This document shows positions 12,971 to 33,417 of a DNA stretch of 43,758 nt, in pieces. The notes beneath the pieces were generated by a model. That model saw only the letters and a program-made list of their open reading frames with translations, did no database searches and was not told the DNA's origin. The translations under genes were made by a program, and so were the position numbers. Every line of letters starts with the position of its first letter. Position 1 is the first letter of the stretch. Source of the DNA: an uncultured delta proteobacterium (GTDB lineage Bacteria > Desulfobacterota > Syntrophobacteria > Syntrophobacterales > Syntrophobacteraceae); NCBI GenBank assembly GCA_963808625.1, contig CAWEHK010000003.1:1-43758 (forward strand), read 5' to 3'.

Positions 12971-14470
12971 ATGAAATCCTCTCGAAAAGCCCTGATCGTC
13001 TTCATGCGCTACCCCGAATCCGGTCGCGTGAAAACCCGCCTGGCCGCTGCCATGGGACCGGTTGCCGCGGCCCGAACCTACGAGAAGCTTATTCGCAGGA
13101 CCCTCGGTGTTGTGGGTGATTTCAAGCGGGAACGGCCCGAAGTCGAGGTTTTCATTTATTTCACTCCCCCCGAAAAAAGACACGAACTTGAAGCAGGCTA
13201 CCCCGGACCATGGCGTTTCGCCCAGCAGCAGGGCGCCCACCTCGGAGAGCGGATGGCCGAGGCCATTCAACAAATGATGCATCAGGGTCACTCGCAGGTT
13301 GTCCTGGTGGGTACCGATCTCGCCGACCTGCAGCCCCCGGACTTCAACGAAGCTTTTCAGGCCCTTGAAAACGGTTACGCCGCATTGGGTCCCGCTGCCG
13401 ATGGCGGCTTTTACCTCATCGGTCTCGACCGCCCCTGCCCTTCCGTTTTCCAAAGCGACGCCTGGGGCACGGAGGAAATCTTTGCGAGGACCGAAGGCTT
13501 GCTTTTGAAGGCGGGATTTAGGGTAAAGCGCCTGAAAGAGAGACGCGACATCGATTATCCTGAAGACGTCCCGTTTCTTGAGACCAAACCCTGGTTCCGT
13601 GCAAGGCTCTCGGTGATCATCCCCACCCTGCGTCCAATCAACCGGCTTGCACCTTCTCTGCAAAGTCTTCAGAAACAAATCTGGCCCGAAGACGAAATTA
13701 TCGTCGTGCAGGCAGAAACGGACTTCCTTGACCTAAATAGAAGGCTACAGTGCAACGTGAACATAGACCTGACGCGTCATTCCGGTGAAAACCTTAATCC
13801 AGAACATTACCTGGATACCGGCTTTCGCCGGTATGACGATCTGAATCCGGACACTTACTTACGTGGTTCTGTACTAAGCCAGCGTGCACCGCAACCCATT
13901 GCCCCGCACATCCTTTCTGCCTTTGCTCCCCGGGGGCGAGGGCTTCAGCTCAACCGAGGAGCGGCCCTGGCCAACGGGAATCTCCTCTTTTTCCTCCACG
14001 ATGACAGCCTTCCGCCCCCAAATTTCGCCTACTCCATCCGTAAAATTTGCGAAGCATCAGACGTCAGCCTCGGTTGTTTTCGGCTCGCCTTTTCTCCATC
14101 AACTCCATTGTTGGACGGGATCGCCCGGTGGGCCAACTCTCGCACCCGCGTATTCGGCCTCCCGTACGGTGACCAAGGACTCTTCTGTCGTCGTGACATC
14201 TACGAAAAAGCGGGAGGCTTCAAGAAACCGTTCCTGATGGAAGACGTCGATTTTGTCCGCCACTGCCGCCACTTGGGACGCTTTATCATGCTTCCGGACA
14301 GCATCGCGACCTCTCCTGAGAGATACCTCCACCGAGGAACCCTTCGCGCCTCCCTGCGAAATCATCTGACGATGCTCCTTTATCACCTCGGCGTCAGTGA
14401 TAAGAGACTTTATTCATTCTACTATGGCAGCGCTCCCTCTTCACCGGCACGGAGCGATCTCCCGACTTGA
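12971..14470 (+). CDS. Fused TIGR04282-type (DUF2064) and TIGR04283-type (GT2) glycosyltransferase
   Basis: N-half: GRVKTRLA, QQGAHLGERM, LGPAADGGFYLIG, RDIDYPED. C-half: LSVIIPTL, GRGLQLNRGA, FLHDD, PYGDQGLF, LMEDV. Confidence 0.88.
   Translation: MKSSRKALIVFMRYPESGRVKTRLAAAMGPVAAARTYEKLIRRTLGVVGDFKRERPEVEVFIYFTPPEKRHELEAGYPGPWRFAQQQGAHLGERMAEAIQQMMHQGHSQVVLVGTDLADLQPPDFNEAFQALENGYAALGPAADGGFYLIGLDRPCPSVFQSDAWGTEEIFARTEGLLLKAGFRVKRLKERRDIDYPEDVPFLETKPWFRARLSVIIPTLRPINRLAPSLQSLQKQIWPEDEIIVVQAETDFLDLNRRLQCNVNIDLTRHSGENLNPEHYLDTGFRRYDDLNPDTYLRGSVLSQRAPQPIAPHILSAFAPRGRGLQLNRGAALANGNLLFFLHDDSLPPPNFAYSIRKICEASDVSLGCFRLAFSPSTPLLDGIARWANSRTRVFGLPYGDQGLFCRRDIYEKAGGFKKPFLMEDVDFVRHCRHLGRFIMLPDSIATSPERYLHRGTLRASLRNHLTMLLYHLGVSDKRLYSFYYGSAPSSPARSDLPT
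13775..13838. repeat. Palindromic GTCATTCC..GGWATGAC element inserted in frame in the glycosyltransferase
   Basis: cgtcattccggtgaaaaccttaatccag..ctggataccggctttcgccggtatgacg; same family as the intergenic copies at 36673 and 40400. Confidence 0.75.
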
Positions 14471-14604
14471 GATCGCGTTCTTCGCGGTAAAGCACTACCA
14501 TTGCCTCCTCGGCAGCGGTGCCGGCGGTATAAAGGATCTGTAATGCGTCGCCGAAGTCGCCCAATTTGGTCCGACCAAGCACATCCACGTGTGCATAAGC
14601 CTGT

Positions 14605-14959
14605 CGTACATAGACCTTGCGAAGCCAGCCCTTTTCGCCTATCCTTCAGGTGACGGTCACCATGGAAGCGGAGCAACTTTCCTTTTTGCAAGAGCACAGT
14701 TGCTTGGCACAGGGAATACTTGTGCCTGCGGATCTTGTTGGATACTCGACGCAACTCACCTTGGCCAACACCCTTCCCGCACCGGTCGTTTTATTCAAGA
14801 CGTCGGTACTGGGCTAACACATTGAAACCAAAATAGAAAGGCAGAATAGGATAAGCCTGTATCGTTAAGGAATACGGTATTTAGGCCGTCTAGTTTATGT
14901 CTTTCTGGCTACCATATCATTTGTAACGATAGCCAGAACTGGACAATCAATTGTTGGGC
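14605..14959 (+). other. Conserved non-coding leader ending in an attI-like site (copy A, filled)
   Basis: Collinear homology to 29005-29408; ends tggacaatcaattG/TTGGGC, immediately followed by an attC-bounded ORF. Confidence 0.7.
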
Positions 14960-14995
14960 GCACGCTATTGCGAATTGACAATCGGGAGTTCCATC

Positions 14996-15493
14996 ATGCC
15001 AGAAGATCCACACGAATCCACAAAGCTCCAAAAGGATGTTCTCTGGGGTTTGTATCTCGAATATCGAACTCATGCGCGGCATAGCGAGACGTTGCGTTCA
15101 AACGTGAACAACAATCTACTGCTGGCAGCCTCCGGACTTACAGCAGTCATAGCAGTTGGCCAAGGAATTGATCACAACGACTGGCCCCTGTCGGTGCTCA
15201 TGATTCTTCTCGGCCTAATTGGAGCATTGTTTTCGGCCTCGTATACCGAGCGCTATCACCGAAACAGGGAGAGAGCGTCAGAAGTGAAGAATCAGATTGA
15301 CTCTTTGTTATTCGTTGGCCACACGCAACGAACGATGAAAGACCTTCAGGTAAGTGCAGATCGACAGCACTATGACAACGCACGCCATAGATGGATACGC
15401 CGCAGTACCAGTGCGCATTGGTTTTGGCTTGTTTTTCCACTCATGGTTGCCCTACTCGGCGCTGTTCTTACCGTTTTGTCGTTCGCCCTCTAA
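14996..15493 (+). CDS. Hypothetical 3-TM membrane protein in an integron gene cassette
   Basis: 165 aa, GGGAG RBS, three hydrophobic stretches, lower GC than core genes; flanked by GTTGGGC and an attC site. Confidence 0.75.
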   Translation: MPEDPHESTKLQKDVLWGLYLEYRTHARHSETLRSNVNNNLLLAASGLTAVIAVGQGIDHNDWPLSVLMILLGLIGALFSASYTERYHRNRERASEVKNQIDSLLFVGHTQRTMKDLQVSADRQHYDNARHRWIRRSTSAHWFWLVFPLMVALLGAVLTVLSFAL

Positions 15494-15512
15494 AGGCACG
15501 CCGTAACTGGCC

Positions 15513-15600
15513 GCCCAACGAATGCGTCAACCGGACGCGGGGGGCTACGTGGTCGCATTTTCCTGAAGTCCTTGGCCCCGCACCGGTTACGCTGTTGGGC
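15513..15600 (+). other. attC site
   Basis: R'' GCCCAAC and R' GTTGGGC; gcgtCaaccggAcgcgggg pairs with ccccgcaccggttacgc leaving two extrahelical bases. The L'-R' spacer is ~4 nt shorter than canonical. Confidence 0.8.
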
Positions 15601-15610
15601 ACAAGGGCTG

Positions 15611-15679
15611 GTGCGTTCTGCGTTGGATCTGCGTTGCTGTGTTGGGTCGGGCTGCGTTCTGCGTTGGGTCGGGCCAAGC
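15611..15679 (+). repeat. Stuttered CTGCGTT repeats interleaved with GGGTCGGGCCAAG element-end pieces
   Basis: About 6 copies of (c)tgcgtt mixed with gga, g, gggtcggg and finally gggtcgggccaagc. Confidence 0.75.
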
Positions 15680-15786
15680 TAAGTGATTTATGTTTCAGGA
15701 AAACTTACAGGACAAAGGGTTTTCTTAATCTTAGAAGTGCATTTTTGGTGGGGAAATTGAATCCTTGAGGCCAAGAGCAAAAGGAT

Positions 15787-15977
15787 ATGGCGAGAACCAA
15801 ACGGCACTTCCCGTCCGCGTATGCCTGGCATTTAATTCATCGGTGCTACAAGAAGGAATGATCCTGAAGCTCGCAAGGGACCGCGGCTGATGGCTCTGCT
15901 GGCTGTTCGAGGCAAAGAAACGGTATGGACTACGTACTCTGAACTATGTGGTCACATGACAAGCACATCCATTTGCA
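15787..15977 (+). pseudogene. RAYT/IS200-like HUH transposase 5' fragment
   Basis: MARTKRHF..WHLIHRCYKKE*..WLFEAKKRYGLRTLNYVVT..HIHL with stops and frameshifts. Confidence 0.8.
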
Positions 15978-16056
15978 ACTTGACCATTCCGCCGGGTTGC
16001 AGGTTTCGCATTGGTCAGCCCGGATCCGATCCGTTGAACGAGAGGAGTCACGGCAA

Positions 16057-16296
16057 TTGTCACCAACTATCCTAAAGACTGGTCCGTATAGGTTTTATTT
16101 TGTCAGTCACGACCTGCACGAACCCCCTCACGTGCACATTGATCGTGACGACCTTTCTGCGAAATTCTGGCTTAAGCCTGTCAGGTTGGCATTCAATATT
16201 GGTTTTTCGGCCAGAGAATTACGCATACTGGAGGCACTTACCACGGAACATCAGCAACAGCTCTTGGAGGCATGGTATGGTTACTTCGGAACTTAA
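16057..16296 (+). CDS. DUF4160 family protein (putative toxin)
   Basis: PTILKTGPYRFYFVSHDLHEPPHVHI..AKFWL; TTG start after AGGAG. Confidence 0.85.
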   Translation: MSPTILKTGPYRFYFVSHDLHEPPHVHIDRDDLSAKFWLKPVRLAFNIGFSARELRILEALTTEHQQQLLEAWYGYFGT

Positions 16297-16552
16297 AGCC
16301 GGTGAACGAGTCAGAGATGTCCGCTTCACCGAAGACACAATCAGCGTAGACCTTGCCGATGGACGCACCATAACGGTTCCTTTGGTTTGGTACCCTCGCC
16401 TTCTCCATGCAACCACCCAGCAGAGGGAGAAGTGGCGAATATCTGGGGCTGGCTACTGCATTCACTGGCCGGATATTGATGAAGACTTAAGCACCCAAGG
16501 CCTGCTCCAGGGCGCGCCTGCGCCTCACAACGCAAGAGAAGTCGCAGCTTAA
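16277..16552 (+). CDS. DUF2442 family protein (putative antitoxin)
   Basis: VDLADGRTITVPLVWYPRL..IHWPDIDEDLS; overlaps the DUF4160 gene. Confidence 0.88.
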   Translation: MVTSELKAGERVRDVRFTEDTISVDLADGRTITVPLVWYPRLLHATTQQREKWRISGAGYCIHWPDIDEDLSTQGLLQGAPAPHNAREVAA

Positions 16553-16570
16553 GGTCGGTAAAGAACCATG

Positions 16571-16660
16571 GGCGAAGGATGCACTCAACCCGACGGCGGG
16601 TGCAGAGCTGCAGTTACCAGTGAGACCTGGGTGCGCCGCCGGCTATCGTGATTGTTGAAT
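16571..16660 (+). other. Degenerate attC-like site
   Basis: gcactcaacccgacggcg..cgccgccggctatcgtgattGTTGAAT shortly after the TA pair; R'' box eroded. Confidence 0.4.
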
Positions 16661-16722
16661 CTGCGCACGAATTCGGCTATGGCGAGTCACAGGCTTGCGG
16701 CATAATCTGGAGAGGGTCACCG

Positions 16723-16810
16723 ATGAAGAAACGTAAATTGCTATAGAAATTGCTATTCGGCTCCAAGAACATCCGGTTTTCGGAAGCAGTGACCTGTGCC
16801 AAGGCATTCC
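16723..16810 (+). pseudogene. HicA-like toxin 5' fragment (copy 1)
   Basis: MKKRKLL*KLLFGSKNIRFSEAVTCAKAF, ending just before ggggtcggaccaagg. Confidence 0.6.
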
Positions 16811-17161
16811 CATCGGCGGGGTCGGACCAAGGCAAGTGCTTGCCCCTTCGAGGATTATGCTCCTGGGTTTCATGGTAAGTACTTGAAATCACAGGACCAC
16901 TTTTCGGAAAACAGGCTCATTTTCAGGCCCATGGAGGGTGGTATTGACACTCTCATGTAGAACGGGATCAGACTGCTCTCGGGACTATGCGGATATAAGG
17001 ACACGGCATCATAGCTGAAGTCCATGTTCCACAATAATGACCTCATAGTAACCGCGCGCTTCCAGTTGGACCGTTAGCTGGTCGATCCTCAACGAAGATG
17101 CCCTCATCACTTTCCAGGGGAGAAATGTGATATATTGTGAACCAATCCCAGAGGGTCACCG

Positions 17162-17213
17162 ACGAAGAAGCGCAAATTGCTGCAGAAATTGCTTTCCGGC
17201 TCGAAGAACATTA
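17162..17213 (+). pseudogene. HicA-like toxin 5' fragment (copy 2)
   Basis: (ACG)KKRKLLQKLLSGSKNI, with the same agagggtcaccga leader as copy 1. Confidence 0.55.
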
Positions 17214-17302
17214 TCCGGACGTCAGAGGGCCGGACGCCGGACAGGGTTGAATTTTCCTCCAGCACTGCGGGTAGAGGCAGTGGCTGGTTGAAGGGATTGC
17301 GC

Positions 17303-18630
17303 TCAGGGGGAGTCCCCCCAGGGCGTTCTCGTGCCCATTTCCAGCAGCCACTGCCATACGGGGACAACGTCGATTTTCCCGCCGTCCACGGCAATGGACT
17401 CCGATTCATCAAAGGTGAGAATCGTCCCTTTTTTGAGCTTGAATTCCCTCATGGCCTCAAGAAGGCCCTCAATCTCCCTTTTTCTCGTGCCGGCATCCTT
17501 CAGGGAATAACTCACCTGTATGGCGTCCCTGACGGCCTTGCCCTCTTTCACGATGAAATCGCATTCCTTTTTTCCCTTCCAGTAATAGCACTCCAGGCCT
17601 CCTCGTCTTGAACCCGGCAAAAACCGCATTTTCGAGGAGCCTGCCCGCGTCTTCCGAAAACTTGAAGGAAACGGCGTTAATGAATCCGTTGTCCACACAG
17701 TAGGCCTTTCTTGGATAGGTTATCTGTTTCTTCAAACTGTATGAAAAATGATTGAAGCCGAAGAGGAGATAGACATCTTCGAGATAACCGATATACTCCT
17801 CAAGGGTATGCGCGTTGACATCAAGGAGCCCGGAAAGGTTCTTGACGCTGAATGAGGCCGTCGCGTTGCTCATCAGATAATGCGCGGCTTTTTCGTATTG
17901 TTTCGTCCGCCGTATGGCATATCTCCTGATGACGTCCCTCGTCAGAATGCCATTGTAGTATTCCTTCAAAAGAGCGGATCTTCAGCTTTGTGTTTTCCTC
18001 GTTGACAACCTCGGGAAAACCTCCGTACAAAAGGTATTCGCTGAAGGCGTGCCGTATCTGCGCTTTCCTGCTTATGATGGCGGGCAACGAGAAATCCGTG
18101 AGAATGCCCCTGTGCTTCACAATTTCCCGAAAAGAGAAGGGATAGACCTCATGCGGAATCGTCCTCCCGGTCAGGAGCGTTGCATATTCCCCTTTCAACA
18201 GGGAGGAGTTTGATCCCGTGACAACGATTTTCAAACCCCGTACGCCGTCGTAGAGCTTCCTCAGGTCCTTCTGCCAGCCCTCAATCTCCTGGACCTCATC
18301 AAGGAAGAGATGAACCTTGCCGGAAGGGTTCATGAACGCGAGATACTTCTCGTAAAGATCATACAACGATGCGTCCTTGAAGGCACGGATCTTCGAGGTT
18401 GAGATGGAGGATATTGCGGGCGGGAACGTCCTCTTTCAGCAGAAGATCGATAAGGAGATGCAGCATGGTCGTCTTGCCGCTTCTCCTGACGCCGCTGATC
18501 GTGAGTATCTCTTTCCTCCCGAAAAGCTGTCTTCAGAAACGATAAGTCGTCTCTTTCACTGGGCTTTCAGCCAGTCTTTTTCTCCAACCCACCATGGATT
18601 CCAGAAAACAAAAGCGTCATAGAATGTCAT
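17303..18630 (-). CDS. AAA_14 plus DUF4143 ATP-binding protein (frameshifted)
   Basis: MTFYDAFVFWNPWW, FLDEVQ, VTGSNS, YGGFPEV, KAYCVDNGF, ECDFIV..AIQVS. Confidence 0.85.
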
Positions 18631-18946
18631 TTTCTATCTCCATATCAATGATATATGAAGCATTATACCGCTCCATATTTGCAATGTAAAGGCTTTGTTG
18701 CTGTTTCGCTCCTCGCCGTATCAATTGTCCGGCAAGGAATGCCGGTCATCGCCTCCTGCATGGCGCCGCAGGCGTCAAGCGAGAAGATCGAGAAAAGAAC
18801 CCATTCGCGTTCTTCAACGCGACCGCTTCGTCTTATACGTATCTACGATCATGATCGAACTACCGTCATATTGACAACGCAGAAATCAACACCATAATTC
18901 AAAGGGCTTGTTTGACAAAGGAATGATGAAATGGAGGGCATTCTAA

Positions 18947-19616
18947 ATGGCCAATTATGTTTTGATTCATGGTGGCAACATGGCTACAGAAACCTGGAAT
19001 AGACTTGTCCAAAGGAATGACTATCCGCCCGGAGGCCATTTGGGCGCCAAGTATTGGGATGGGACCGTTTCTGTTCTCACGGCACATAATCACCGCGTTT
19101 TTGCGCCGACACTCAAGGATGAACACAGCTGCAATCTGACTGGCCATATTGAACAAATCTGCATGCTGATAACCGAAAACGATCTCAGGGATGTAATCCT
19201 GGTCGGGCACAGTTACGGCGGGATGGTTATTACCGGGGTCGCCGCCAAAATGGCGGACAGAATCAGCCGTTTGGTATACGTTGATGCCGCATTGCCAGAT
19301 CCGGGACAATCACTGTTTGACGTTATTGTTTCCGCGTGGTTGCGACCCCATGTCGTTTGCCGGATTGGAACCGGCTGCGGCTTATGTGGAAAAACTGCAG
19401 TTTGACGCCCAGAAAATAAAACGGTTGCCTAAAACCTATATTCTCTGCACTGAAAGCGAGTTTGCATCCGTGACGCATGTCGCCAGGCAGAAAATTGCCG
19501 CCGCCGGAAAAGAATGGACCTACCTGGAGTTGCCGACATCCCACGTGCCGATGGCCACCATGCCGGACAAGTTTACGCAATTATTGCTGGAAGCCGGAAT
19601 ACAATACCAACAGTAG
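18947..19616 (+). CDS. Alpha/beta hydrolase (esterase; frameshift near 19335)
   Basis: VLIHGG, GHSYGG nucleophile elbow, LPTSHVPM His motif. Confidence 0.88.
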
Positions 19617-21366
19617 GGACAACTCCCATGCTTTCAGAAACGACAATCCGGACTTCAAGGGTTGTGGGAGGAGGCCTTAATGAGTATCAACGTCATTCAG
19701 CCGGCCGCCAAATGCCGCAATGAGAATTGCTGCTGTTACTTCTTTACTTCTTGTTGTTTATGTCAAGGGTTTGATATCCTCCTGCAAAAAGTTTGCAAGG
19801 AGGACAGGGATGTCAGGGATGTTTCTCAGCTATCGTCGGGATGATTCCGCGGGTTACGCCGGTCGATTAGGAAACGATTTGAGGGAGCACTTTGGCCCAG
19901 ACCGCGTTTTCATGGATATCGAAACTATAGAACCTGGCCTAGATTTTGTTGAAGCAATTGATAAGGCAGCAGAATCATGTGATGTTCTATTAGTTGTAAT
20001 CGGGAGACAATGGCTCGCCGCTGTTGATGCGAAAGGCCAGCGTCGGCTTGATGATCCAAACGACTATGTACGGGTAGAGATCTCGACTGCGCTAAAACGG
20101 AAGATTCGTGTGATTCCAATCCTTCTTCAGAATGCTTCTATGCCAAGCCCAGAGGATCTTCCAGAGGACTTAGTATTCCTCACACGAAGGCACGCGATTG
20201 AGGTCGCAGATACTCGTTGGAAGTACGACATACAACGCTTGATCGAGACCCTGGAAAAAGTGCTAGGAGTGCCACATAAGGGACAGGCAAAGCCATCTCT
20301 AGATTCCTCCCCGCCACCCCTAGCCCGACTTTACCGCGTTCGGGATGACATTACGGCTAACCACTCATTATCACAAAGAAAATTAAACACAATACGTATG
20401 ACCTAACAAATGTAGGCGAAATACTTATCAGAGCTCGCCATATTATCCTTTATTTAAAGCTTTTTAAAAAAAGTAATTGACACGATGTGGTGCATAATGT
20501 ATGACCTAATTAATGGCAAGCTTAACTAAAAAAATTATCCGCGGGCAGACTTATTACTACGCCCGCGAATGTCAACGCGTCGACGGCAAGCCCAAGATCG
20601 TTTGGCAGAAGTATCTTGGTCGCCTCAACGATATCCTCGCGGCTGCGGCTATGCGCAACCACGCGATCTCGCTTCCCCAACCCGAACGGGAGGGACTGTT
20701 GGTCGAGCTCGGGGCCACTGCTGCCTTGTACGATCTCTCAGCACGCATGAACCTGAGCGTCCTCATTGATCGACAGGTTCCCAAACGCGGCAACGGTCCT
20801 TCGGTCGGCACCTATCTCCTGGTGGCTATCCTTAACCGTTGTGTGGACCCGCGAAGCAAAGCCCAGATAGCTGAATGGTTCGATAAGACCATACTCCACC
20901 GTCTGATCGACATCCGAAGCAGTCAACTGACGAGTCAACGCTACTGGGACAACATGGACCGGCTTTCGGCCGAGGCCATGTTGGCGATTGAGGCTGAGTT
21001 GACGGTCCGAGTAGTGGAACAGTTCCAACTCAACGTGCGCCGGCTCCTGTTCGATGCCACCAACTTCTTCACGTTTATCGACACCTTCAACAACAAATCA
21101 ACCCTGGCGCAGCGGGGTAAGAGCAAGGAAGGACGGAGCTCCCTTCGCATCGTGGGGGTAGCGCTCTTGGTGACCGCCGACTTTCATGTGCCGTTGTTCC
21201 ATCACACGTATCCCGGAAACCAGCCCGATGCCCCTACTTTCGCCGGTCTCACAGAGGCGGTGGTTGCCCGCTGCAATCGCTTCGTAGAAGGCGTTGAGGA
21301 CGTCACTCTCATCTTCGACAAAGGCAACAACTCTCAGGACAATCTCCGTGCCGTCGACGTTTGGAC

Positions 21367-21600
21367 TTAGCGCCCTTCGGGCGGACTTTTGATCCCGGTG
21401 TATTGCATAGTCTCCCGGTTACAGCCAGGACACCCAATAACAGGCATAACTACTTCTCTTCCCTCAAACTCGGCAAAGCCAAGCTCGAAATCGATGATCG
21501 CCTCGTTGACCCACACTTCACACCCGCACAGGGAACAGCGATAATTGTACTCCTCCGGAGGGGGGCCAAAGGGAATATCCTCCCCATCCTGAAGTTCCAT
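21367..21600 (-). CDS. Small CxxC..CxxC zinc-finger passenger protein of the IS91-like element
   Basis: 77 aa with CSLCG and CPGCN; overlaps the transposase 3' end. Confidence 0.55.
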   Translation of the reverse strand: MELQDGEDIPFGPPPEEYNYRCSLCGCEVWVNEAIIDFELGFAEFEGREVVMPVIGCPGCNRETMQYTGIKSPPEGR

Positions 21601-22840
21601 CTCTGTTCTTAGCGATTCTTTCGTATTTGCCCGCTTTGAGGTTTTCCCACTCATCGTAGATCGTCCCGTACTTGGGGTGCCATATCTTCCAGAGATCCAT
21701 CTCCCGACCACAGAATCTGCAAATCAGCGGATCTCAACCGCTCATCTCCTGGAACCTTTCACGATACTTCTTGGATGCAACCACCTCATAAGTACCCTTG
21801 ATAACTCGCCCTACCCTACGTAATCCTTCCCTAATCACCTCCACCCATTTCTTGAAGGTCTTCGTTGCTTGCAGACCATAGTAGCGGAGCCGCTGAAATC
21901 CTTTCGGAAAAATATGTTGAACCATCCGTCCAATGAAGGTCATCACGTTGACCGTGACCACTTCTTTTTTCTTTGTCTGGTGATCCTTGTACCAGTACGT
22001 CACTTCCTGACCGGTGTAGCCCATGATCCGTCTTACGGCTATCGGAGGAGAGGCAACATATTTGGCCAGGTATTTGGCCAAGCCTCGGCATTGCTCTGGA
22101 ACTTTTCCTTTGGTCACATGGGCAACAAGTCCTCTCGGGTACTTCTTCCAGAGAGCATCAATCAAGGACCTCATCTCCGTCGTTGGAACCATCTCCTTAA
22201 GCATCTTGAAGAGATGATATTGCCACTTCTTGTGGATGATCTCATACGGAAAATACCCCAACTCCACCCACTTACCCGTCTCTTCGTTGACCCCTCCACT
22301 GCTCATGATAATGTGAAGATGCGGATTATAGTGCCCAGACCGACCATGAGTTTGCACCACACCGATCGCTCCAATCTTCACCTGCTGCCTCACCGCGCAG
22401 CTCACCACATCTTCAAGGCACTCATACCCACAACGCATCAGTGCCGACAAGAGCTTCCCCTCATGCCGATCTCGATAGAAGATAATCCGTTGTTGCTCAG
22501 GAACCGTCAGGATCATATGACGGTATCTCACTCCAGGCTGCAATACACGGCTGACCTGCGCCACAAAATCATCCGTGTATCCTTTGCAACACGACAAACA
22601 AAAGCAACTCTTACAGGTAAAGGCAATCCGCCGCATATCCTTCCCGCAACAGGTGCACAGGTATTCGCTGTATCCTCCCGCTTCCTTTCCACAACCCAAC
22701 ATCTTTTGCACCACCTCTTCGTAATACCCTCCAGCATACGGCGGATGGCGCTCTTTGAACTCGATCCAATGTTCCTCGAATATCTGACGGAAGATGTTCC
22801 GATCAATCGCTTCTACCCTCTCCCCCTACTCTCGGTCCAC
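21518..22840 (-). pseudogene. IS91-family (Y2 HUH) transposase with in-frame stops
   Basis: Zn motif CTCC..CKSCFCLSC, HYNPHLH (HUH), YLAKY, FQRLRYYG. In-frame TGA at 21734-21736 precedes DPLICRFCG; TAG near the 5' end. Confidence 0.88.
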
Positions 22841-24434
22841 CTACCTTTCTATCATGACTCAATTGATTTCATTGAGGAAAAATGCAAATTCCTATACTAT
22901 CAAGTTACCATTTCGTAGGCTCCCTGGTTCCCACCCAACACCCGGATCTTCTCCAGATTTCAAGAGACGAGCTCCGATCACTGGCCGAAGAAGGGTTGCC
23001 TACCGTCTACGCGTACCGCACGACGAAGACCGTATTCGGCCGGAAGCGCACCATCGTGGTCACGTACAACGACAACCTCTTTGTCGCCCAAGCCAAAACA
23101 CTTCAGCGGGAGATCGCCAAACGATGCCAACGGCTTCGGGAACTGCATATGCACTTGGAGAGTTGGAGGGCCGGGCAACTGCGTGGAGGCAAAAAACCCA
23201 CCGTTGCCGCCACCGAGAAGAAGGTCAAGGCTTGGCTTAAAGCCAGGCACATGAAAGATCTCTTTAGCGTCGAGATTAGAGAGCGAGACGGCCTGCCGGA
23301 CGTCATTTGCCAGTTCAATAACGATGCCTGGGAGAACCTTCAAACCACCTTGCTTGGGAAAACCCTCCTGTTCACCGATAATGACCAATGGTCGGATGGC
23401 GAAATCGTCCGCGCCTATCGCTCGCAGTATCATGTCGAAGCAGCCTTCCGCGAGATGAAGAATCCGCACCACATCGCGCTACGCCCGCAGTATCATTGGA
23501 CCGATCAGAAGGTCCGCGTTCACGTGTTCACCTGTGTGGTAGCACTGATGTTGTTGAGCCTTTTGCGCCGGGAGCTACACCACAAGGGGATTAACCTGTC
23601 TACCCGACGAATCATCGAATCACTCAGCGAGATTCGGGAAATGACAATGTTCTTCCCATCTGAAAATGGGAAGGGCAAACCAATGATGAGGACCTCTCTC
23701 AGCACGATGACTAAGGAACAAAAGCAAATCTACCAAGCTCTCGATCTTGAGCGCTATACCAGTTAGGTCATACAAAAAATGGGCACTTTCTCCTTTAGGA
23801 ACAACTACTTACAGAATTAGCGCGGTAAAGTCGGGCTAGTGAGAAAGCATCGGGCATTGAAGGTTCTTTTCTACCTCTTGTTGGCGGGACTCGCCCTCTT
23901 GGGGGGACTCGTTCTCTTGGCGAAACTCGCTGCTCTCATGTCCTCGCGATAGGAAAGTTGCACCATATTTCTTCGTTGCAGGCATGCTAGTTTGGAGGCG
24001 ATGGACTCGGCAAAGAACCCGACACCAAATTTTCAAAAGAAGCTTCGTTTTTCCAAGTGCCGTAGGATAGGGCAAAAGTGAGGTGTAGCCCGTCAACCGG
24101 CGTTGTAATGCCTAACATCTATAGAGCCTCCGCTTGTCAAGGCAAAAACCTCCCCAAAGGAAAAATATATACATCTTCCGCTGACGCGTAGGGGGTGAGA
24201 GGGTCGCAGCAACTGTGTCGATCTGTCTTAGCTTCCGTGCGTCGGTTCCACGCGCCGTGCCTGCACCAAACATCTATCGAGGATCAGGCTGCTTGCTTGG
24301 AGAAGCAACCAAGGCAAGGAGAACTCGCATCAGGAGGCTCTCAGTAATCCCTGCACGACGTTCTGCATGATCCTCTCTGACAGGTGATTCAAGGTGCACG
24401 AGCGCCAATTCACCCGCATCCACCAACACCATTT

Positions 24435-24469
24435 TGTACAATTTGTAAAATTGTTTGACAAATTGTGCA
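24435..24469. promoter_or_regulatory. AT-rich inverted repeat (possible operator) upstream of the AAA pseudogene
   Basis: tgtacaatttgtaaaa-ttg-tttgacaaattgtgca, 14/16 match, contains TTGACA. Confidence 0.4.
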
Positions 24470-24489
24470 GGACGACGTAACCGGCGGTT

Positions 24490-25280
24490 ATAATTGGACG
24501 AACAGCACACGCTACGCTCATACGCCTGGCCAGGGGCTTTCCGGTCGTTGCCGTTACGGGACCGCGCCAGTCGGGGAAGACCACCCTTGCCAGGGCCGCT
24601 TTCCCTGACAAGCCTTATCTGTCTCTGGAAGATCCCGATACCCGACTCCTGGCCGAAAGCGATCCGCGCGGGCTTCTCTCCCGCTTCCCCGACGGTGTCA
24701 TCCTGGATGAAGCGCAACGGGTCCCAGGGCTCTTCTCCTACCTGCAGACGAAGGTCGACGCCAACCTTCACCCCGGCACCTACGTGCTGACCGGTTCGCA
24801 GCAGTTCGGCCTCCTGATAGGCATTACGCAGTCTCTGGCCGGCCGGGTCGGGATGGTGCAACTCCTGCCCTTTTCCCTCGCCGAACTGCAGCGGGCGGGC
24901 AGGCTCCCGCCAGACCTCGACAAACTTGTGTTCCGCGGCTCTATCCTCCTCTCTATGACCGTGACATGACTCCCGGCGACTGGTGTGCCGGTTATGTCAG
25001 CACCTATGTTGAGCGCGATGTCCGCCAACTCATCGCGGTGCGTGACCTGTCGGCGTTTCAGCGGTTCCTCAGGATGTGTGCAGCCCGTACCGGACAACTC
25101 CTGAACCTCTCATCTCTGGCGGCCGGCCTCTACGTCGCCCTTTACTGCCTCGGCGGTTGCGCCGGCTCGGTTCTTCCCGGTTTTCTATGGAAGCAAACGG
25201 GATGGTTCGGGTGCGTGGCAATGATCGTCAGCATGCAGGTTATCACCGTCCTGATTGCCAATAAATTGTGGCAAGACTGA
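24490..25280 (+). pseudogene. Chimeric remnant: AAA_14/DUF4143 ATPase 5' part fused to an MFS transporter C-terminus
   Basis: TGPRQSGKTT, ILDEAQR, LTGSQQ, ESLAGR-like and TYVERDVR motifs, then GLYVALYCLGGCAGSVLPGFLWKQTGW (YnfM-like last helices). ATA in place of ATG; frameshift near 24940. Confidence 0.8.
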
Positions 25281-25493
25281 TTGCCCACCTAATCCCCGTT
25301 GCATCGCGACGAGCAGACTTCTTGACCTGTCTCGGCAGATTCTTTATCGTAAGTTCACCGGCAAAAACACTGACTCTCAATCCTGATTACTGTTTCTTGG
25401 TGCTGTCATTGATGAGGAAGCGCCTGCAGGCGGGAAGCGGGACACGGCGGCTTTCCCCTGGGGGACTCTTCACCAATCGAGGAGAAAAACCTG

Positions 25494-25754
25494 GTGAAAC
25501 GGTTAAGAAATCTTCTGCGGCAGGCGGAGTTCCAGACCCTGCTGTTCATCCTCGGTTTTGCTCTGCTCAATTGGCCGTTTCTCGGCATATTTCGGTCGAA
25601 GCGGCCAGAGGTCCTCCTGGTCTACCTCTATTTCCTCTGGGCCATTGGCATCTTCCTCCTGTTTCTGGTGAGCAGATTCGGCGATGAGCCTGCCTCGCGG
25701 GACAACGAAGAGCAAGCGGAAGGACCACCGTGCTTGATTCGGGGATGGTGCTGA
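25494..25754 (+). CDS. Small 2-TM partner of the symporter-kinase
   Basis: LLNWPFLGIF..LYFLWAIGI pattern; overlaps the kinase start. Confidence 0.7.
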   Translation: MKRLRNLLRQAEFQTLLFILGFALLNWPFLGIFRSKRPEVLLVYLYFLWAIGIFLLFLVSRFGDEPASRDNEEQAEGPPCLIRGWC

Positions 25755-28700
25755 CCGTATTCTGCCTGTATCTGGCGTGCCTCTTCCTCATCGCCCTGTG
25801 GGTGGAGCGGAAAGCGGCAGCAGGCAAAAGCCCGGCCAACAACCCCTACGTCTATTCCCTCTCCCTGGCGGTGTATTGCACGGCCTGGACGTATTACGGA
25901 AGCGTCGGCCAGGCCGCCACCTCAGGGCTTCTCTTCCTGCCCATGTACCTTGGCCCGACGCTCGCCATCATGCTCTGGTGGTCCATCCTGCGGCGACTGG
26001 TTCAGCTCAAGAACAGCCGTCGGATCACCAGCATCGCCGATTTTATTTCAGCCCGCTACGGGAGGTCCCAAGCCCTTGCCGCCATGGTCACCATGATCGC
26101 GCTGGTGGGCATCACACCCTATATCGCGCTTCAGCTCAAGGCGATTATTTCCACCTTCGAAATCATCACCGCTGCCGGCACCACGTCCTGGGTCCGGGCC
26201 GATGTTGGTCCGGTGGTCGTGGTGCTCATGGTGGTCTTCACGATCATTCTCGGCGTAAGGCGGCTGGATCCCACCGAACGGCACGAAGGCATGATGATGG
26301 CCCTGGCGGTGGAATGCGTCGTCAAACTGCTGGCCCTTCTTACCGTCGGCATCTTTGTGACCTACTTCATGAACGACGGCTTCAGTGACATCTTCCGGCG
26401 GCTCTCAGAAAGTCCCTTTCATAATCTCCTCGAATTTGGGAAGCAGGATGCCGCTGCCTATGTTACGTGGGCAGGCTACCTTGTGCTTTCCATGTCGGCG
26501 ATCCTCTTTCTCCCGAGGCAGTTTCATGTGGCGGTGATCGAGAACCACGACGAAAAACACATCCTGACGGCCATGTGGCTCCTGCCGCTCTACCTCCTTC
26601 TGATCAGCATGTTTGTCCTCCCGATTGCCGCGGGCGGCTTGCTCGACGGCCAGCCGCTTTATGACGCCGACACCTTTGTTTTGCGCATCCCGCTTCAGCA
26701 TGGCAAACCCTGGCTCTCTCTCCTGGTCTTCATCGGCGGCTTTTCCGCCGCTGCCGGTATGATCATGATCTGCTCGGTAACGATGGCAACCATGATCACC
26801 AACCATCTTCTGCTGCCTCTGGTGCAATGGGTTCGCTGGCTGGCTTTCGTGAAGCGCCATCTCCTGAAATGCCGGTGGGGCGCCGTGGCCGGCTTCATTG
26901 TCATCGGTTACTGGTTCGAGGAGCGCATTGGTGAATCCTACATGCTGGTCAATATCGGCCTCATTTCTTTTGCCGCCGTGCTTCAGTTTGCTCCGGCCAT
27001 TCTGGGAGGCCTTTTCTGGCGGCGGGGGAATAAAGCCGGCGCGATCCTCGGCCTCGCCGGGGGGTTTGCCGTATGGTGCTACACCCTGCTCGTGCCATCT
27101 TTTGTCAAGAGCGGCTGGGTCACCTCTGCGCTGCTCGAAAAGGGACCGTGGGGAATAGCGCTCCTCAAACCGGAGGAACTCTTCGGCCTGACGGGATTCA
27201 ATCCTCTGAGCCACGCCGTCCTCTGGACCATGCTCTGCAATATCGGTCTTTATGTCGCGGGCTCCCTTTACTCCTGGGAAGGGGACGAGGACCGGAGCCT
27301 TGCCGAAGAGTTCGTCGGGGTTCTCGAGACGACAGCTCCCCTGCGCCGTGCCCGCCGCAGGGACGTTTACATCGAGCTGGCTCCCAAGAAAAACGAAATC
27401 GAGAAGGTCCTTTGCCAGTATTTTGCCGAACCGGAGACGGAGGCCATGGTTGAAAGGTGCCTCATCGAGACGGGAGTTCATAGCGCAGAGCAGATTTCGA
27501 TTGTTCAGCTGGTCGAGCTGCATAACAAAGTGGAGCGCTCCCTGGCCGGGGCCATCGGGTCGGCGGCCGCTCACAAGGCGTTGCAGCAGGGGACGATATT
27601 CACGCCCAGGGAAGCTCGGGAGCTGTCGGAAGTTTACAGTGAGATCCTCGCGGACCTGAAGGTCCTGCCGAGCGAGCTGTCAGAGCGAATCGACTACTAC
27701 CAGGAAAGGGAAAGGCTCCTCCTCCAGCAGGCCAAAGAGCTGGAACAGAAGGTCGATGAGCTGCGCAAGCAGATCCGGAAGCGCAAGCAGGCGGAGGTGG
27801 CGCTCCGGGAATCGGAAGCGCGCTATCGAACGCTGGTCGAAAGCACTTCGGACGCCATTCTGCTGGTGGACAAAGAGCGCATGATCGTTTCCGCCAACCA
27901 GGCGTTCCTGGATCTTTTCGGCTACGAACGCACGGAACTCGAGAGGCAGTCGATACGGATCGTTCATCCTTCGGAAGAGAGCTTCATCGCCTTCGGGAAA
28001 AGGGCTCATTCGGCGGTCGCCACCGAAACTCCCTTCTGGACGGAGTGGAACCTCGTCCGCAGGGATGGAACCATCTTCCCCATTGAGGGGTCATACTCGG
28101 CGATCAGAGGCCCTGACGGTTCACCGGCGGCTTATGTTGCCATCATCAGAGACATCACCGAACGGAAGAAGGCGGAAGAAGAACTGAAGAACTATCGCGA
28201 TCACCTCGAGAACATGGTCAAGGAACGGACCCTGCAACTCGAGGCGGCTCAGAAGGCCCTGGTGCAGAAGGAAAAACTCAAAACCCTGGGCGCCATTGCG
28301 GCGGAGGTGGCCCATGAAATACGAAACCCGCTCATGTCCGTGGGTGGCTTTGCCATGCGTCTCCAGAAGAAATTTCCGGACCTCCCCGAAGTCGCGATCA
28401 TTCTGGAGGAATCCAGGCGCCTGGAAAAAATCCTGGACCGCATCAGGGACTATCTCCGGCCGGTGGAAATGCGCTCCCGGGAATGCTCCGTGAACACCGT
28501 GGTCGCCGAAAGTGTGGGTTTGCTCGCCCCCGACCTCGAACGGGAAGGCGTCGTCTGGCAACTGGATCTTGCCCCCGATCTGCCTCCCGCGCTGGTCGAC
28601 CCCGACATCCTGGCCGAGGTTTTCAATTACGTCATCACCCATACCGCAAAGGTCATGGATAAGCAGGGAGTCCTGATCATACGGACCTATGAAACCGAGC

Positions 28701-28954
28701 AAAACATCCAGATCGACTTTCGCAGCCCGGTCCCGGTCGAGAAGCCCATCAAAGATCCCGAACGATTGCTGCTCCCTTTCGAAGAAGGCGAAGCAATCGG
28801 CGGAGTGCCGCTGAGCTACCGCCTCCTGAAGGCCATGGGCGGTCTTCTCTCCTTCACCCAGGAAGGCCGCGACATGCTCTTCACCGTCTCCCTGCCCCGA
28901 GTCCCCGAGTCGGATACGGACACGCCGAAGAGCCCTGCGGGATTGCGGACTTGA
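25730..28954 (+). CDS. Na+/solute symporter (SLC5)-STAC-PAS-histidine kinase (CbrA/CrbS-like architecture)
   Basis: SLAVYCTAWTYYGSVG, LPRQFHV, LAGAIGSAAA (STAC-like), PAS ending RDITERKKAE, H-box AHEIRNPL. Confidence 0.92.
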   Translation: MLDSGMVLTVFCLYLACLFLIALWVERKAAAGKSPANNPYVYSLSLAVYCTAWTYYGSVGQAATSGLLFLPMYLGPTLAIMLWWSILRRLVQLKNSRRITSIADFISARYGRSQALAAMVTMIALVGITPYIALQLKAIISTFEIITAAGTTSWVRADVGPVVVVLMVVFTIILGVRRLDPTERHEGMMMALAVECVVKLLALLTVGIFVTYFMNDGFSDIFRRLSESPFHNLLEFGKQDAAAYVTWAGYLVLSMSAILFLPRQFHVAVIENHDEKHILTAMWLLPLYLLLISMFVLPIAAGGLLDGQPLYDADTFVLRIPLQHGKPWLSLLVFIGGFSAAAGMIMICSVTMATMITNHLLLPLVQWVRWLAFVKRHLLKCRWGAVAGFIVIGYWFEERIGESYMLVNIGLISFAAVLQFAPAILGGLFWRRGNKAGAILGLAGGFAVWCYTLLVPSFVKSGWVTSALLEKGPWGIALLKPEELFGLTGFNPLSHAVLWTMLCNIGLYVAGSLYSWEGDEDRSLAEEFVGVLETTAPLRRARRRDVYIELAPKKNEIEKVLCQYFAEPETEAMVERCLIETGVHSAEQISIVQLVELHNKVERSLAGAIGSAAAHKALQQGTIFTPREARELSEVYSEILADLKVLPSELSERIDYYQERERLLLQQAKELEQKVDELRKQIRKRKQAEVALRESEARYRTLVESTSDAILLVDKERMIVSANQAFLDLFGYERTELERQSIRIVHPSEESFIAFGKRAHSAVATETPFWTEWNLVRRDGTIFPIEGSYSAIRGPDGSPAAYVAIIRDITERKKAEEELKNYRDHLENMVKERTLQLEAAQKALVQKEKLKTLGAIAAEVAHEIRNPLMSVGGFAMRLQKKFPDLPEVAIILEESRRLEKILDRIRDYLRPVEMRSRECSVNTVVAESVGLLAPDLEREGVVWQLDLAPDLPPALVDPDILAEVFNYVITHTAKVMDKQGVLIIRTYETEQNIQIDFRSPVPVEKPIKDPERLLLPFEEGEAIGGVPLSYRLLKAMGGLLSFTQEGRDMLFTVSLPRVPESDTDTPKSPAGLRT

Positions 28955-29004
28955 TGACGAGGTCGGGAGACTTTGAGAGGGTTGGGCCAAGCTTTGAGCT
29001 TGCG

Positions 29005-29408
29005 CGTACATAAACCTTGCGAAGTCAGCCCATTTCGCCTAATTTTCGGGTTCTTGCAACTGCCATGGAAGTGGAGCGACCCTGCTATCGCCCATGAACG
29101 CATTTGACCAACGCCTTTCCCGTATCTTTCGCTTCGCCCAACGCTTCGGCACCGGGCTAAAAACTGGAACCGAAACAGAGGCCCATCTGAGTATGGGCCT
29201 GCGTCGCTGAAGAATGCGGCTTTAGGAAATCTAATATGCGGTTTTCTGAGTATCACACCATTTGTAACGATACCAAGAAGTGATGGATTCGTAGAAAGTC
29301 CCAAAATGGGCATTTTGCGGAACCTAACACGTTGAATTTATTAGATGCCACTTTGCAAAAAATGACTTTTTACGAGACCATCAAGAAGTGGACAATCATT
29401 TGTTGGGT
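29005..29408 (+). other. Conserved non-coding leader ending in an attI-like site (copy B, empty, MITE-interrupted)
   Basis: Homologous to 14605-14959; ends tggacaatcatttG/TTGGGTACAA, matching the sequence after the attC of copy A (GTTGGGCACAA). Confidence 0.7.
29281..29383. mobile_element. MITE, 103 bp
   Basis: TIRs TGATGGnnTCGTAnAAAGTC (17/20), AGAAG target duplication; removing it restores ungapped alignment with copy A. Confidence 0.85.
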
Positions 29409-29458
29409 ACAACTGAATGAACAGGTGAGGAGGTGGATGCGGAAATGAAACGAGGCAA

Positions 29459-29556
29459 TCGGGCAGGGTCGGACCAAGTCGGGCAGTCGGGCAGGGTCGG
29501 AATCGGGCAGTCGGGCAGGGTCGCCAAGCGGGCAGTCGGGCAGGGTCGGACCAAGC
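29459..29556 (+). repeat. Stuttered TCGGGCA repeats interleaved with GGGTCGGACCAAG element-end pieces
   Basis: Seven (t)cgggca copies alternating with full or truncated gggtcggaccaag. Confidence 0.8.
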
Positions 29557-29670
29557 CAACTGGTTGAATCAACATATACAACACCTGTCGACAGGGAGTT
29601 TTTCTCAGCTTAGAGCCACCATTTAGCAGTCAAAATGACCCAGCTAAGCGGGAGTGGGGAGCTGGAAAGC

Positions 29671-29832
29671 ATGCCAGAAGCAGATCGGCATTATATACCG
29701 GGCAAAGTGCGGCACATCACCCATCGTTGTCACAGGAAGGAACTCCTCCTGAGGTTTGCCGAAGATCGGCAGAAATGGCTCGACTGGCTGATCGAGGCCA
29801 AGTAACGGTATGGGGTCGTCATCCTCAACTAC
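29671..29832 (+). pseudogene. RAYT/IS200-like HUH transposase 5' fragment
   Basis: MPEADRHYIPGKVRHITHRCHRKELLLRFAEDRQKWLDWLIEAK*RYGVVILNY. Confidence 0.82.
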
Positions 29833-30018
29833 AAGTCGATCGCTGACGACCCCGAGGTCGCCAGCATCGAAATCAGCCCAAACATAACTGCAGAACTCAA
29901 CGAGAAGGGTGAACTCATCGGCATTGAGATTCTGAACACAAGTACCTACGTGCGGGATGCAATTTTGGAATCTGTCCAGGCCAGGATGCTCCAACTCTCG
30001 GAAGCCAAAAGCGCTTGA
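29833..30018 (+). pseudogene. DUF2283-like protein 3' fragment
   Basis: SIEISPNITAELNEKGELIGIEILN..SA*, in frame with the transposase fragment. Confidence 0.7.
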
Positions 30019-30113
30019 TGGGGTGATTGCTGTCGCGATGCTCTGATCATATTGTCTTTTTCGAACAGGATGGCTTCTCTCCCAATGAATGCCTTTTATT
30101 CCTTCATTATACT

Positions 30114-30262
30114 CAGGGGGCGTCCAAGAATAGAGGGCCTTCTTTTACCACGAAGAATACGAAGAGCACGAAGTGATTTCTTCGTGCTCTTCGCGCTCTT
30201 CGTATTCTTCGTGGTTCAAAAAAGGGTTGAAATGGGTGCAAGCTATTTCCGGACGGTTTCTA
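30114..30262. mobile_element. MITE with internal CACGAAG-type palindromic repeats (copy 1)
   Basis: Near-identical to 41497-41636; imperfect TIR around gtccragaatag / ytatttyyggac. Confidence 0.75.
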
Positions 30263-30330
30263 AGGATCGGCAGAAATGGCTCAACTGGTTGTTTGAGGCC
30301 AAGAAGCGTTATGGGCTCATCATTCTCAGT
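30262..30330 (+). pseudogene. Third RAYT-like transposase fragment
   Basis: KDRQKWLNWLFEAKKRYGLIILS. Confidence 0.7.
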
Positions 30331-33060: not shown

Positions 33061-33169
33061 GGTTCTGCTCCTTCAAAAAAAAAATCCTTCAAACCTCTCC
33101 CCGAGGTCTGAAGGATTGCGTAATGGTTTCGGCAATCACACAGCCTTGCCCCACACGGAGTGGGCGCCC

Positions 33170-33355: not shown

Positions 33356-33360
33356 AAGTT

Positions 33361-33417
33361 TCTTGGCTCTTGGCTCTCTTGGCTCTTGGCTCTTGGCCTT
33401 GGCTCTGGCTTTGCTCT
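33361..33417. repeat. Heptamer tandem repeat (TCTTGGC)n
   Basis: Degenerate tcttggc units directly upstream of the riboswitch. Confidence 0.8.

Follow-up and report, generated by a model that had tools for sequence, protein, structure and literature searches.

Dispersed relic integron heads with a truncated integrase gene in a genome of the Syntrophobacteraceae

Integrase-less cassettes in described systems

Cassettes that lie apart from any integron integrase are already known, and they form the background to the element described here, a relic integron head present as two copies, A and B, in a 43,758-nucleotide stretch of DNA (the window) from an uncultured delta proteobacterium of the family Syntrophobacteraceae. 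CALINs and SALINs are, respectively, clusters of attC sites and single attC sites without an integron integrase (PMC4889954; 10.1101/2022.09.11.507474). In the parts of these papers that treat their origin, loss of the integrase and insertion in trans have both been proposed (PMC4889954; 10.1101/2022.09.11.507474), and about 95% of CALINs are reported, in the corresponding part of the later survey, not to lie near recognisable pseudogenes of the integrase gene intI (10.1101/2022.09.11.507474). IntegronFinder, in the part of its description that concerns attI, does not search for unknown attI sites (PMC4889954), and heads of the present kind would therefore escape it. The window holds one attC and its contig no intI gene; head A, with this single site, is SALIN-like, and its orthologue in a sister species (genome G029) and a further head of the same genome (C40a), each with one complete and one truncated attC, are CALIN-like. 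Unlike CALINs and SALINs, however, these heads are bounded on their left by a conserved attI and an intI stump, at about nine places in a single genome and in many relatives.

Degenerate sedentary chromosomal integrons in Xanthomonas reportedly have intI pseudogenes beside attI and a cassette array. They share with the heads a decayed integrase next to attI and cassettes, and a chromosomal location with no known mobile element. While those of Xanthomonas are single orthologous loci in each genome, the heads are multiplied and dispersed, with a shared truncation at about codon 53–63. Sites of the attG type, as characterised in the part of the survey devoted to them, are very numerous, have only a GWT consensus in common and are structurally unlike attI (10.1101/2022.09.11.507474). 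Both attG sites and the heads would receive cassettes away from any complete integron, through an integrase supplied in trans, but the heads offer a conserved module of about 60 nt beside an intI stump, used repeatedly. Sedentary chromosomal integrons are also described, in the material available from a recent report, as stores of anti-phage defence cassettes (10.1101/2024.07.02.601686). The cassettes found here match HEC-01, TIR, PtuB-like and PDC-S14 candidate families, though as one or two cassettes per integrase-less head rather than as a long array.

A narrow phrase search of the literature for orphan, solo or isolated attI sites or integrase-less integrons returned no integron paper describing such heads, so that multiplied, dispersed heads with attI and a uniformly truncated intI were not found in print by this search; a search for literature linking attC with RAYT (REP-associated tyrosine transposase; REP, repetitive extragenic palindrome) returned nothing relevant by title or abstract.

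Anatomy of heads A and B

The metagenome-assembled genome (MAG, G000) that contains the window, on its contig C3, comprises 4.8 Mb in 54 contigs and is 84.6% complete with 4.5% contamination. The analysis covered 8 genomes of its genus, 81 of its family (16 genera), 96 of its order and 122 of its class. Leaders A (14605–14959) and B (29005–29408) are homologous and collinear in a MAFFT alignment; BLASTN of A against the whole MAG matched B at 76% over 76 nt (E 3e-8) and 67% over 181 nt (E 1e-7), and no further leader copy was found in the MAG at this sensitivity. About 120 nt of A (14650–14760) are partly missing from B and wholly missing from the G029 orthologue. Copy A reads ...CAATCAATTG/TTGGGC, with the G at 14953, followed by an open reading frame (ORF), an attC and then G/TTGGGCACAA; copy B reads ...CAATCATTTG/TTGGGTACAA, with the G at 29402 and no insertion. 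An earlier note on this DNA had described the two leaders as collinear homologous stretches, with a cassette exactly at the G/TT point of A, an empty site in B and no visible intI; alignment and direct reading bear this out, and no match to the integron-integrase family TIGR02249 was found on the window's contig. The features are collected in Table 1, in which the right limit of the intI stump and the left truncation point are approximate.

Table 1. Features of heads A and B and their surroundings, in positions of the window
Feature	Position	Strand	Evidence
REP-like palindrome TTGGTCCGACCAAG, left of head A	14566..14579	.	Read directly
Decayed 5' end of integron-integrase gene, codons 1 to about 53; truncated at the left edge	14605..14770	-	BLASTP, nhmmer
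intI-attI intergenic region, ending in the class's own relic attI, ...GTATTTAGGCCGTCTAGTTTATG/T, junction 14899/14900	14771..14900	+	Aligned to G032 ...GTTTAGACCGTCTAATCCATG/TTATGG
Module of about 60 nt: 11-bp inverted repeat TTCTGGCTA..TAGCCAGAA and core GGACAATCAATTG/TTGGGC	14901..14961	+	Profile, BLASTN
Integron cassette: ORF 14996–15493 (165 aa, two predicted membrane helices) and attC 15513–15600	14954..15594	+	Junctions, attC fold, attC family
Right half of the dock after cassette A, TTGGGCACAAG; equals TTGGGTACAAC of empty copy B	15595..15605	+	Direct comparison
Stuttered partial repeats ending in REP-like GGGTCGGGCCAAG	15610..15679	+	Direct reading, repeat listing, motif scan
Broken RAYT-like (Y1 HUH) transposase 5' fragment, ends at HIH codons	15787..15975	+	tblastn to C31:51251 gene
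REP-like GGTTGGGCCAAGC, left of head B	28981..28993	.	Read directly
Head B, architecture as A, intI stump internally deleted; empty dock ...GGACAATCATTTG/TTGGGTACAA	29005..29402	+	Alignment, BLASTN, leader profile
MITE-like (miniature inverted-repeat transposable element) insert in head B, 99 nt, 9-bp direct repeat CAAGAAGTG at flanks	29283..29381	+	Alignment gap and duplication
Stuttered repeats with two full REP-like GGGTCGGACCAAG	29452..29555	+	Repeat listing, motif scan
RAYT-like 5' fragment, in-frame TAA 29803, cut by DUF2283-like gene fragment	29671..29835	+	61% identity over 54 aa to C31 gene

On homology, the leader is a relic integron head, the decayed start of an intI gene together with the attI region of that integron. 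A bottom-strand frame of A reads ELRRVSNKIRRHKYSL..LLRFHGDRHLKD and matches the N-terminus of the IntI of the congener G032 with 18/40 identities (BLASTP, E 8e-6). A leader profile built from three sequences (A, B and the G029 orthologue of A) was run with nhmmer against nine intI loci of the genus and matched one only, that of G032 (E 4.8e-12), aligning on the strand opposite intI from inside the gene past its start codon into the region of the first cassette. This G032 N-terminus is in turn matched by the TIGR02249 model (E 1.4e-57). The leader's 5' two-fifths are thus intI coding sequence, with the conserved 5' block coding for ...KD..SQ.L..., and the IntI-specific insertion near patch III falls beyond the point at which the heads are truncated. 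A complete integron would have an intact intI at this place; here there are only about 53 decayed codons on the bottom strand. Since the leader holds this stump, it is a relic integron head rather than an integrase-independent invention or a platform of a new kind. The earlier note had seen an attI-like platform, and the attI-type 3' end with cassettes at G/TT agrees with that; a decayed 5' end of intI, which the same note had named as an outcome that would speak against it, is in part what the leader turned out to be.

The relic attI is homologous to ...GTCTAATCCATG/TTATGG in G032 and to ...GTCTAATCCATG/TTCGAC on contig C14 of G034, the junctions at which the first cassettes of these two loci start, and the R'' boxes CCGTAAC and GTCGAAC fit the left ends. 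In the module that follows in A, the core after the inverted repeat is ACTGGACAATCAATTG/TTGGGC, the cassette junction in use; across copies the end of the module, where cassettes join, has the consensus CAATNAYTTG/TT. The inverted repeat is conserved in sequence and has 77.5% of its cells paired, compared with 26–50% when slid. Where the module lies, which way it faces and its recurrent use by different cassettes would suit an attI, although the two copies with more of intI differ, as described below.

Other readings of the leader were tried and rejected. Its 3' part does not behave as a long attC, as folds of 14755–14962 and 29095–29412 lacked a single hairpin of the attC type, at z scores of only −1.5 to −2.1. 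The 5' block had also been read as a sigma-70 promoter (TTGCGA-17-TATCCT), but a scan gave no promoter-like site in either copy, and the block is intI coding sequence. A first bottom-strand frame, RIGEKGWLRKVYV..., looked conserved and had no Pfam match, the IntI homology lying in a different frame. Profiles built on two other attI types of the genus missed the leaders (type 2 at E<100, type 1 at E<50); the likeness of the cores, CAAT-N3-TTG/TT, is a short motif only.

The attC of copy A is genuine. It is 88 nt long, with R'' GCCCAAC and R' GTTGGGC, and folds into an imperfect hairpin of −23.4 kcal/mol; the left end TTGGGC of the cassette is complementary to R'', as expected at a G/TT junction, and the G029 and C25 cassettes follow the same rule, the C25 copy having the left end G/TTATCT and R'' AGATAAC. 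Four homologues of this attC were found: those on C53 and C25 belong to the MAG, those in G026 and G075 to other genera. In the consensus of the five sequences, R''/R' and L''/L' form stems, two bases are bulged and one pair is compensatory; beyond G/TT the flanks diverge at once. These sites were assigned by hand, from homology and fold; home-made attC scanners served for leads only, being either too strict or unspecific (487 hits, with the window's own attC missed).

The MITE-like insert in head B sits 20 nt upstream of G/TT and has copies on C37, C6 and C38 at 75–84% identity by BLASTN. The histidine-kinase gene of locus B was found in the congeners G031, G032 and G035, with no head after it. 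Elsewhere in the window, an AAA_14/DUF4143 ATPase gene (17469–18366, minus strand) consists of two overlapping ORFs and is probably frameshifted; its intact relative in G032 follows the histidine-kinase gene, where the MAG has head B. An Rfam scan of 14400–16100 gave nothing credible, and the sole match in the window is a cobalamin riboswitch at 33160–33363 on the minus strand (RF00174, 95 bits, E 1.5e-22). A tandem array of about 20 heptamers (GCGGATT/TCGGATG) lies at 40219–40358.

A family of heads and the exchange of cassettes

A profile of the truncated intI stump had eight matches in the MAG at E<0.01 (C40:13786, C40:17121, C44:89939, C16:23712, C42:1165, C1:6040, C30:62800 and A), which with B makes nine heads in the MAG; several more occur in congeners. 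Head B was missed both by this independent profile and by a core-module profile, being too eroded, and its membership therefore rests on homology to A; its leader-profile score of E 1.6e-100 is a match by construction, as B is one of the sequences from which that profile was built. The core-module profile found four places in the MAG (A, C40a, C42 and C44), and the leader profile also matched the 3' module on C40, on C42 and, weakly, on C44 (E 0.092). With the G032 IntI as query, tblastn recovered residues 1–53 twice on C40 (E 2.5e-7) and residues 13–34 on C44; a longer, decayed remnant came from C30. IntI homology ends at residue 53–63 in six loci, which represent five distinct copies (L055 and L062 being one C40 unit); longer remnants are kept in G034:C14 (residues 1–151), L058 (to about 80) and L067 (to about 98), and the sole copy with both intI halves, G032:C3, is a pseudogene of near full length with stops and a frameshift. 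Among 17 aligned left ends, similarity begins within a few bases of ..TGAAACATGTTGCTGAC, and sequence further left is unrelated except within sub-families; A and B begin at about ..TGAAACATGTTGCTGAC too. The conserved ..ACATG/TTGCTGAC follows about 10 nt to the right of this common boundary.

Leader A as a BLASTN query found only G029 among the order genomes, and exact-pattern scans found the same G029 contig and one metagenome contig with the 5' block only. The better-preserved C40 copy found matches in 17 of the 81 family genomes, from 5 of the 16 genera, with eight matches in G029; the wider head family emerged only by profile and with this query. By BLASTN the 60-nt module is present in 11 of the 122 class genomes, all of one family (four genera of Syntrophobacteraceae). 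The eight profile matches, together with B and the relatives in 17 family genomes, rule out a one-off segmental duplication as the alternative to dispersed copies.

The heads differ in what follows G/TT. Head A has a membrane protein gene with a weak match to the Pfam family 8xMP (E 3e-4, under the cut-off), and head B no cassette. Head C40a is followed by an AAA_21 ATPase and a DUF4276 protein (PADLOC HEC-01A, 7.6e-60, and HEC-01B, 1e-15) and then by a small two-gene cassette; head C42 by a PtuB-like HNH protein and a PDC-S14-like protein; and head C44 by a TIR-domain protein. From these family matches, the genes behind the heads are mostly candidate phage-defence genes (HEC-01, TIR, PtuB-like, PDC-S14). 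The earlier note had proposed dispersed platforms, filled or empty, and the profile matches and this listing agree with it, the copies having different cassettes or none. In the 18 distinct core-module copies that the profile listed over the compared loci and the MAG, the sequence is kept up to ..TTG and differs from TT onward.

It is conceivable that a single cassette was inserted by chance at an attG, giving an ordinary SALIN, and that B was merely never targeted. Integrases do insert at very many genomic GWT sites, and integrase-less single attC sites are common, according to the part of the survey concerned (10.1101/2022.09.11.507474). However, attG sites share only GWT, with unconserved flanks, whereas the heads have a conserved module in 18 copies; one conserved site holds different cassettes in the G029 orthologue and in at least three other heads of the MAG, the copies listed from other genomes also diverge right after it, and it adjoins an intI stump. 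We regard a chance insertion as barely credible.

The most telling comparison is with G029. Its contig is orthologous to locus A, with the same upstream DUF2064/glycosyltransferase (GT2) gene and the same leader, in which the intI stump is further deleted. After ...CACTTG/TTGGGC, this contig continues not with the cassette of A but with an ATPase and DUF4276 (HEC-01-like) cassette and then an MtlR-like cassette, whose R'' boxes complement the left ends. Between the first of these and the cassette behind C40a in the MAG, 1956 nt align at 96.4% identity. The shared stretch ends on the right exactly at the attC G/TT, with unrelated sequence beyond; on the left the match reaches about 27 nt past G/TT into the conserved core upstream, the cassette proper starting at G/TT. 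The orthologous flanks of the two species are 75–79% identical, and the G029 and C40a heads are visibly far more diverged than their cassette, as judged by eye and without a computed identity. With 96.4% for the cassette and 75–79% for the flanks, the cassette must have been transferred since the two species separated, and the heads that it entered, or passed between, have no integrase themselves.

It is probable that the heads are degenerate chromosomal integron heads that form a dispersed family and remain competent attI sites, served by an integrase encoded elsewhere. The heads would have kept attI competence after the loss of their integrase, and an IntI whose gene lies elsewhere, whether in the same cell or on an element entering it, would insert and remove cassettes; copy A would have taken up one cassette, and copy B would be an unloaded paralogue, possibly crippled by the MITE upstream of its site. 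Anatomy, multiplicity and cassette exchange are observed, and the integrase acting in trans is what we infer. An IntI in trans, which the earlier note had also invoked, stands as the most economical account of a 96.4% identical cassette at two heads in two species, the enzyme itself being the inferred element.

Several points weigh against this account. The four TIGR02249 matches of the MAG (C51, C15, C44 and C1) are all truncated or frameshifted, and no intact IntI was found within its 84.6% completeness. Intact IntI genes of two other types occur in five of the eight genus genomes. For the class to which the heads belong, no intact integrase was found in any of the eight, and an IntI generally acts with specificity on its own attI. 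Covariation in the inverted repeat of the module was no better than in shuffled alignments. In the copies of G032 and G034, which keep more of intI and lack the 60-nt module, the first cassette joins at ...CCATG/TT, about 55–60 nt further upstream; the module may be the cognate attI of the class, or it may have entered later at an older ...CCATG/TT junction and then been preferred. Selection on the genes may partly explain the high identity of the shared cassette, and as the heads are spread over different contigs of a MAG with 4.5% contamination, copy number per cell and linkage are provisional. Public reads assembled into 151-nt contigs at depth 2–3, covering small parts and no joints, and speak neither for nor against.

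Some of these observations would suit dead relics, that is, old integrons copied by segmental duplication, with cassette differences arising by loss from longer arrays and no integrase acting in trans since the truncation. Every intI copy of the MAG is broken, a MITE lies beside the site of head B, and cassette A has no relative in the 80 other family genomes; moreover, the last attC in both G029 and C40a breaks off within its loop and runs on into a REP-led unit, which indicates that rearrangements not due to an integrase occur. Dead relics would not readily give a cassette 96.4% identical behind two far more diverged heads in species whose flanks are 75–79% identical, nor a shared stretch with its right edge exactly at the attC G/TT and its left edge in the conserved core just upstream of G/TT, and loss of the first cassettes of an array likewise requires recombination at the head's own G/TT. 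This makes such an origin unlikely, and a family of heads still in use remains the preferred account.

Sites of a second attI type, that of genus integrons whose IntI has a long N-terminal extension, were also found without an integrase. A 77-nt orphan site (C39:7699–7775, L059; nhmmer E 1.7e-12) directly follows the stop codon of an rsgA-like gene and is itself followed by G/TTGGAC and one cassette with a degenerate attC, and another site (C6:245–625, L060; nhmmer E 1.2e-77) retains about 75 codons of its intI. Locus L067 (G031:C2:1122469–1125622, reverse strand) is a mosaic head, in which a decayed leader-class intI stump and a degenerate inverted-repeat module precede a complete second-type attI region (...TTCAATAATTTG/TTGGCG) and then a cassette, so that attI modules look stacked. 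On C8 (C8:54889–54981 and C8:56400–57203, L011), a tyrosine recombinase has next to it an attC-like hairpin, a homologue of the hairpin that follows the orphan attI of C39. This recombinase overlaps a presumably IS91-like ORF, and the unit is directly upstream of three RAYT-like repeats on C8.

REP-like and RAYT-like neighbours and the significance of the heads

Both copies in the window have a REP-like motif to their left and, downstream, a stuttered GGGTCGGRCCAAG, a spacer that is homologous between the two and a short 5' piece of a transposase-like gene, as the earlier note had observed. The MAG contains 16 copies of the motif GGYCGGRCCAAG where 4.3 would be expected, and five lie in the window; the core of the motif, GGTCGGACC, is a 4-bp palindrome around one base and alone is too short for a stable hairpin. 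A looser pattern places REP-like sites 44–102 nt left of A and C40a (left of B by eye) and 0.1–2.7 kb downstream of A, B and C40a, where the genome-wide density leads one to expect about 0.02 per 6 kb. REP-like motifs are thus near three of the nine heads (A, B and C40a) and near none of the other six, and RAYT-like fragments occur only after A, B and the orthologue of A. The longest RAYT-like relative, the C31 gene, is frameshifted at the HUH motif; its halves match the NCBIfam model of REP-associated tyrosine transposases, NF047646, at E 0.041 and 2.8e-9 (13.8 and 37 bits, under the 80-bit cut-off). Three RAYT-like fragments on C8 end at the same HIH codons as fragment A, each followed by other small genes. 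In G029 and C40a, one complete attC is followed by one cut in its loop, which runs into a stutter and a REP.

The REP/RAYT systems represented by NF047646 are alike in having a short, partly palindromic motif, here in 16 copies, and through the sub-threshold match of the longest relative. In contrast to them, the motif is low in copy and preceded by site-specific stutters, the RAYT-like genes are all broken and a link to the heads is not demonstrated; where an intact Y1 HUH gene would lie between REPs, the fragments stop at or before the HUH codons. The association is real, REP-led units lying where these small arrays end. A and B are not independent in this respect, and may share their neighbours through a single duplication. 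Judged from sequence, the REP-like motif and the RAYT-like fragment appear to be neighbours, any role being unproven.

These neighbours led to the idea of satellite attI platforms, built for the purpose, which at no time had an integrase of their own and were spread by a RAYT-type HUH transposase through REP-like ends. REP-like motifs close to A, C40a and B, at an expectation of about 0.02 per 6 kb, and RAYT-like fragments after A, B and A's orthologue are what such platforms would show. Yet the recognisable intI stump points to descent from ordinary integrons, six of nine heads have no REP-like motif nearby, the neighbours of A and B may stem from one duplication, and every RAYT-like gene observed is broken, that on C31 included. 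The REP-led units at C40a and G029 differ from one another and interrupt an attC, and so look like insertions into an array rather than carriage of it. Of the earlier proposal that a HUH transposase spread the heads, the co-location stands, at three of nine heads, and the carriage of heads is not supported; satellite platforms are very unlikely, and we return to relic heads served in trans.

The surrounding repeats have features of their own. Sites of GGYCGGRCCAAG nearly always follow short tandem stutters whose unit is specific to the site (CGAACGC, TCGGGCAG, CTGCGTT, AAACCAA...), as at window positions 102, 15667, 16820, 29467 and 29544 and at C24:2802, C39:4759 and C31:27341. They start unrelated repeat units, among them one of 306 nt (C24/C39) and one of 730 nt (window 72–801 and C35); the 306-nt unit lies upstream of what we take to be a DUF4338-like ORF. 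A DUF4160/DUF2442 gene pair (15946–16552; Pfam E 8e-20 and 6e-24) begins where RAYT-like fragment A stops at the HIH codons. The DUF2283-like fragment that truncates RAYT-like fragment B (29836–29900) is 88% identical to G034:C45:32011–32075, a sequence that an intact integron has on its cassette side. Right after a MITE comes a third RAYT-like fragment, KDRQKWLNWLFEAKKRYGLIILS (30248–30328), which is shorter and 79% identical to fragment B; this hairpin MITE of ACGAAGAACACGAAGAGC-type repeats is present at 30099–30264 and 41482–41638 (85–87% identity), and similar hairpins occur on many contigs (C10, C12, C51, C54 and others).

A bolder form of the argument would be a distributed integron, in which the truncated intI-attI head is a dock that can be multiplied, one integrase encoded elsewhere serves many heads with one or two defence cassettes each, and the heads themselves have perhaps been moved. 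We consider this rather doubtful, though worth stating. Heads may have moved as oversized cassettes through a secondary G/TT inside intI, near ..ACATG/TTGCTGAC, or alternatively may have moved between REP-like ends by means of a RAYT-type HUH enzyme. The stacked attI of G031:C2 and the orphan 77-nt attI on C39 suggest that attI modules are mobile units themselves.

Integron surveys count integrases and attC sites, and the attI of most chromosomal integrons is unknown and unsearched. In these genomes, an attI head defined by its sequence can be traced without the integrase; such heads multiply and disperse, keep exchanging cassettes between species and hold candidate phage-defence genes. The system can also be tested directly: its 60-nt site and its attC partners are defined, and the genus offers several candidate integrases. 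If the heads are functional landing pads, part of what is classed as CALIN and SALIN would be organised rather than debris, and the effective integron system of the cell would extend beyond the array linked to intI.

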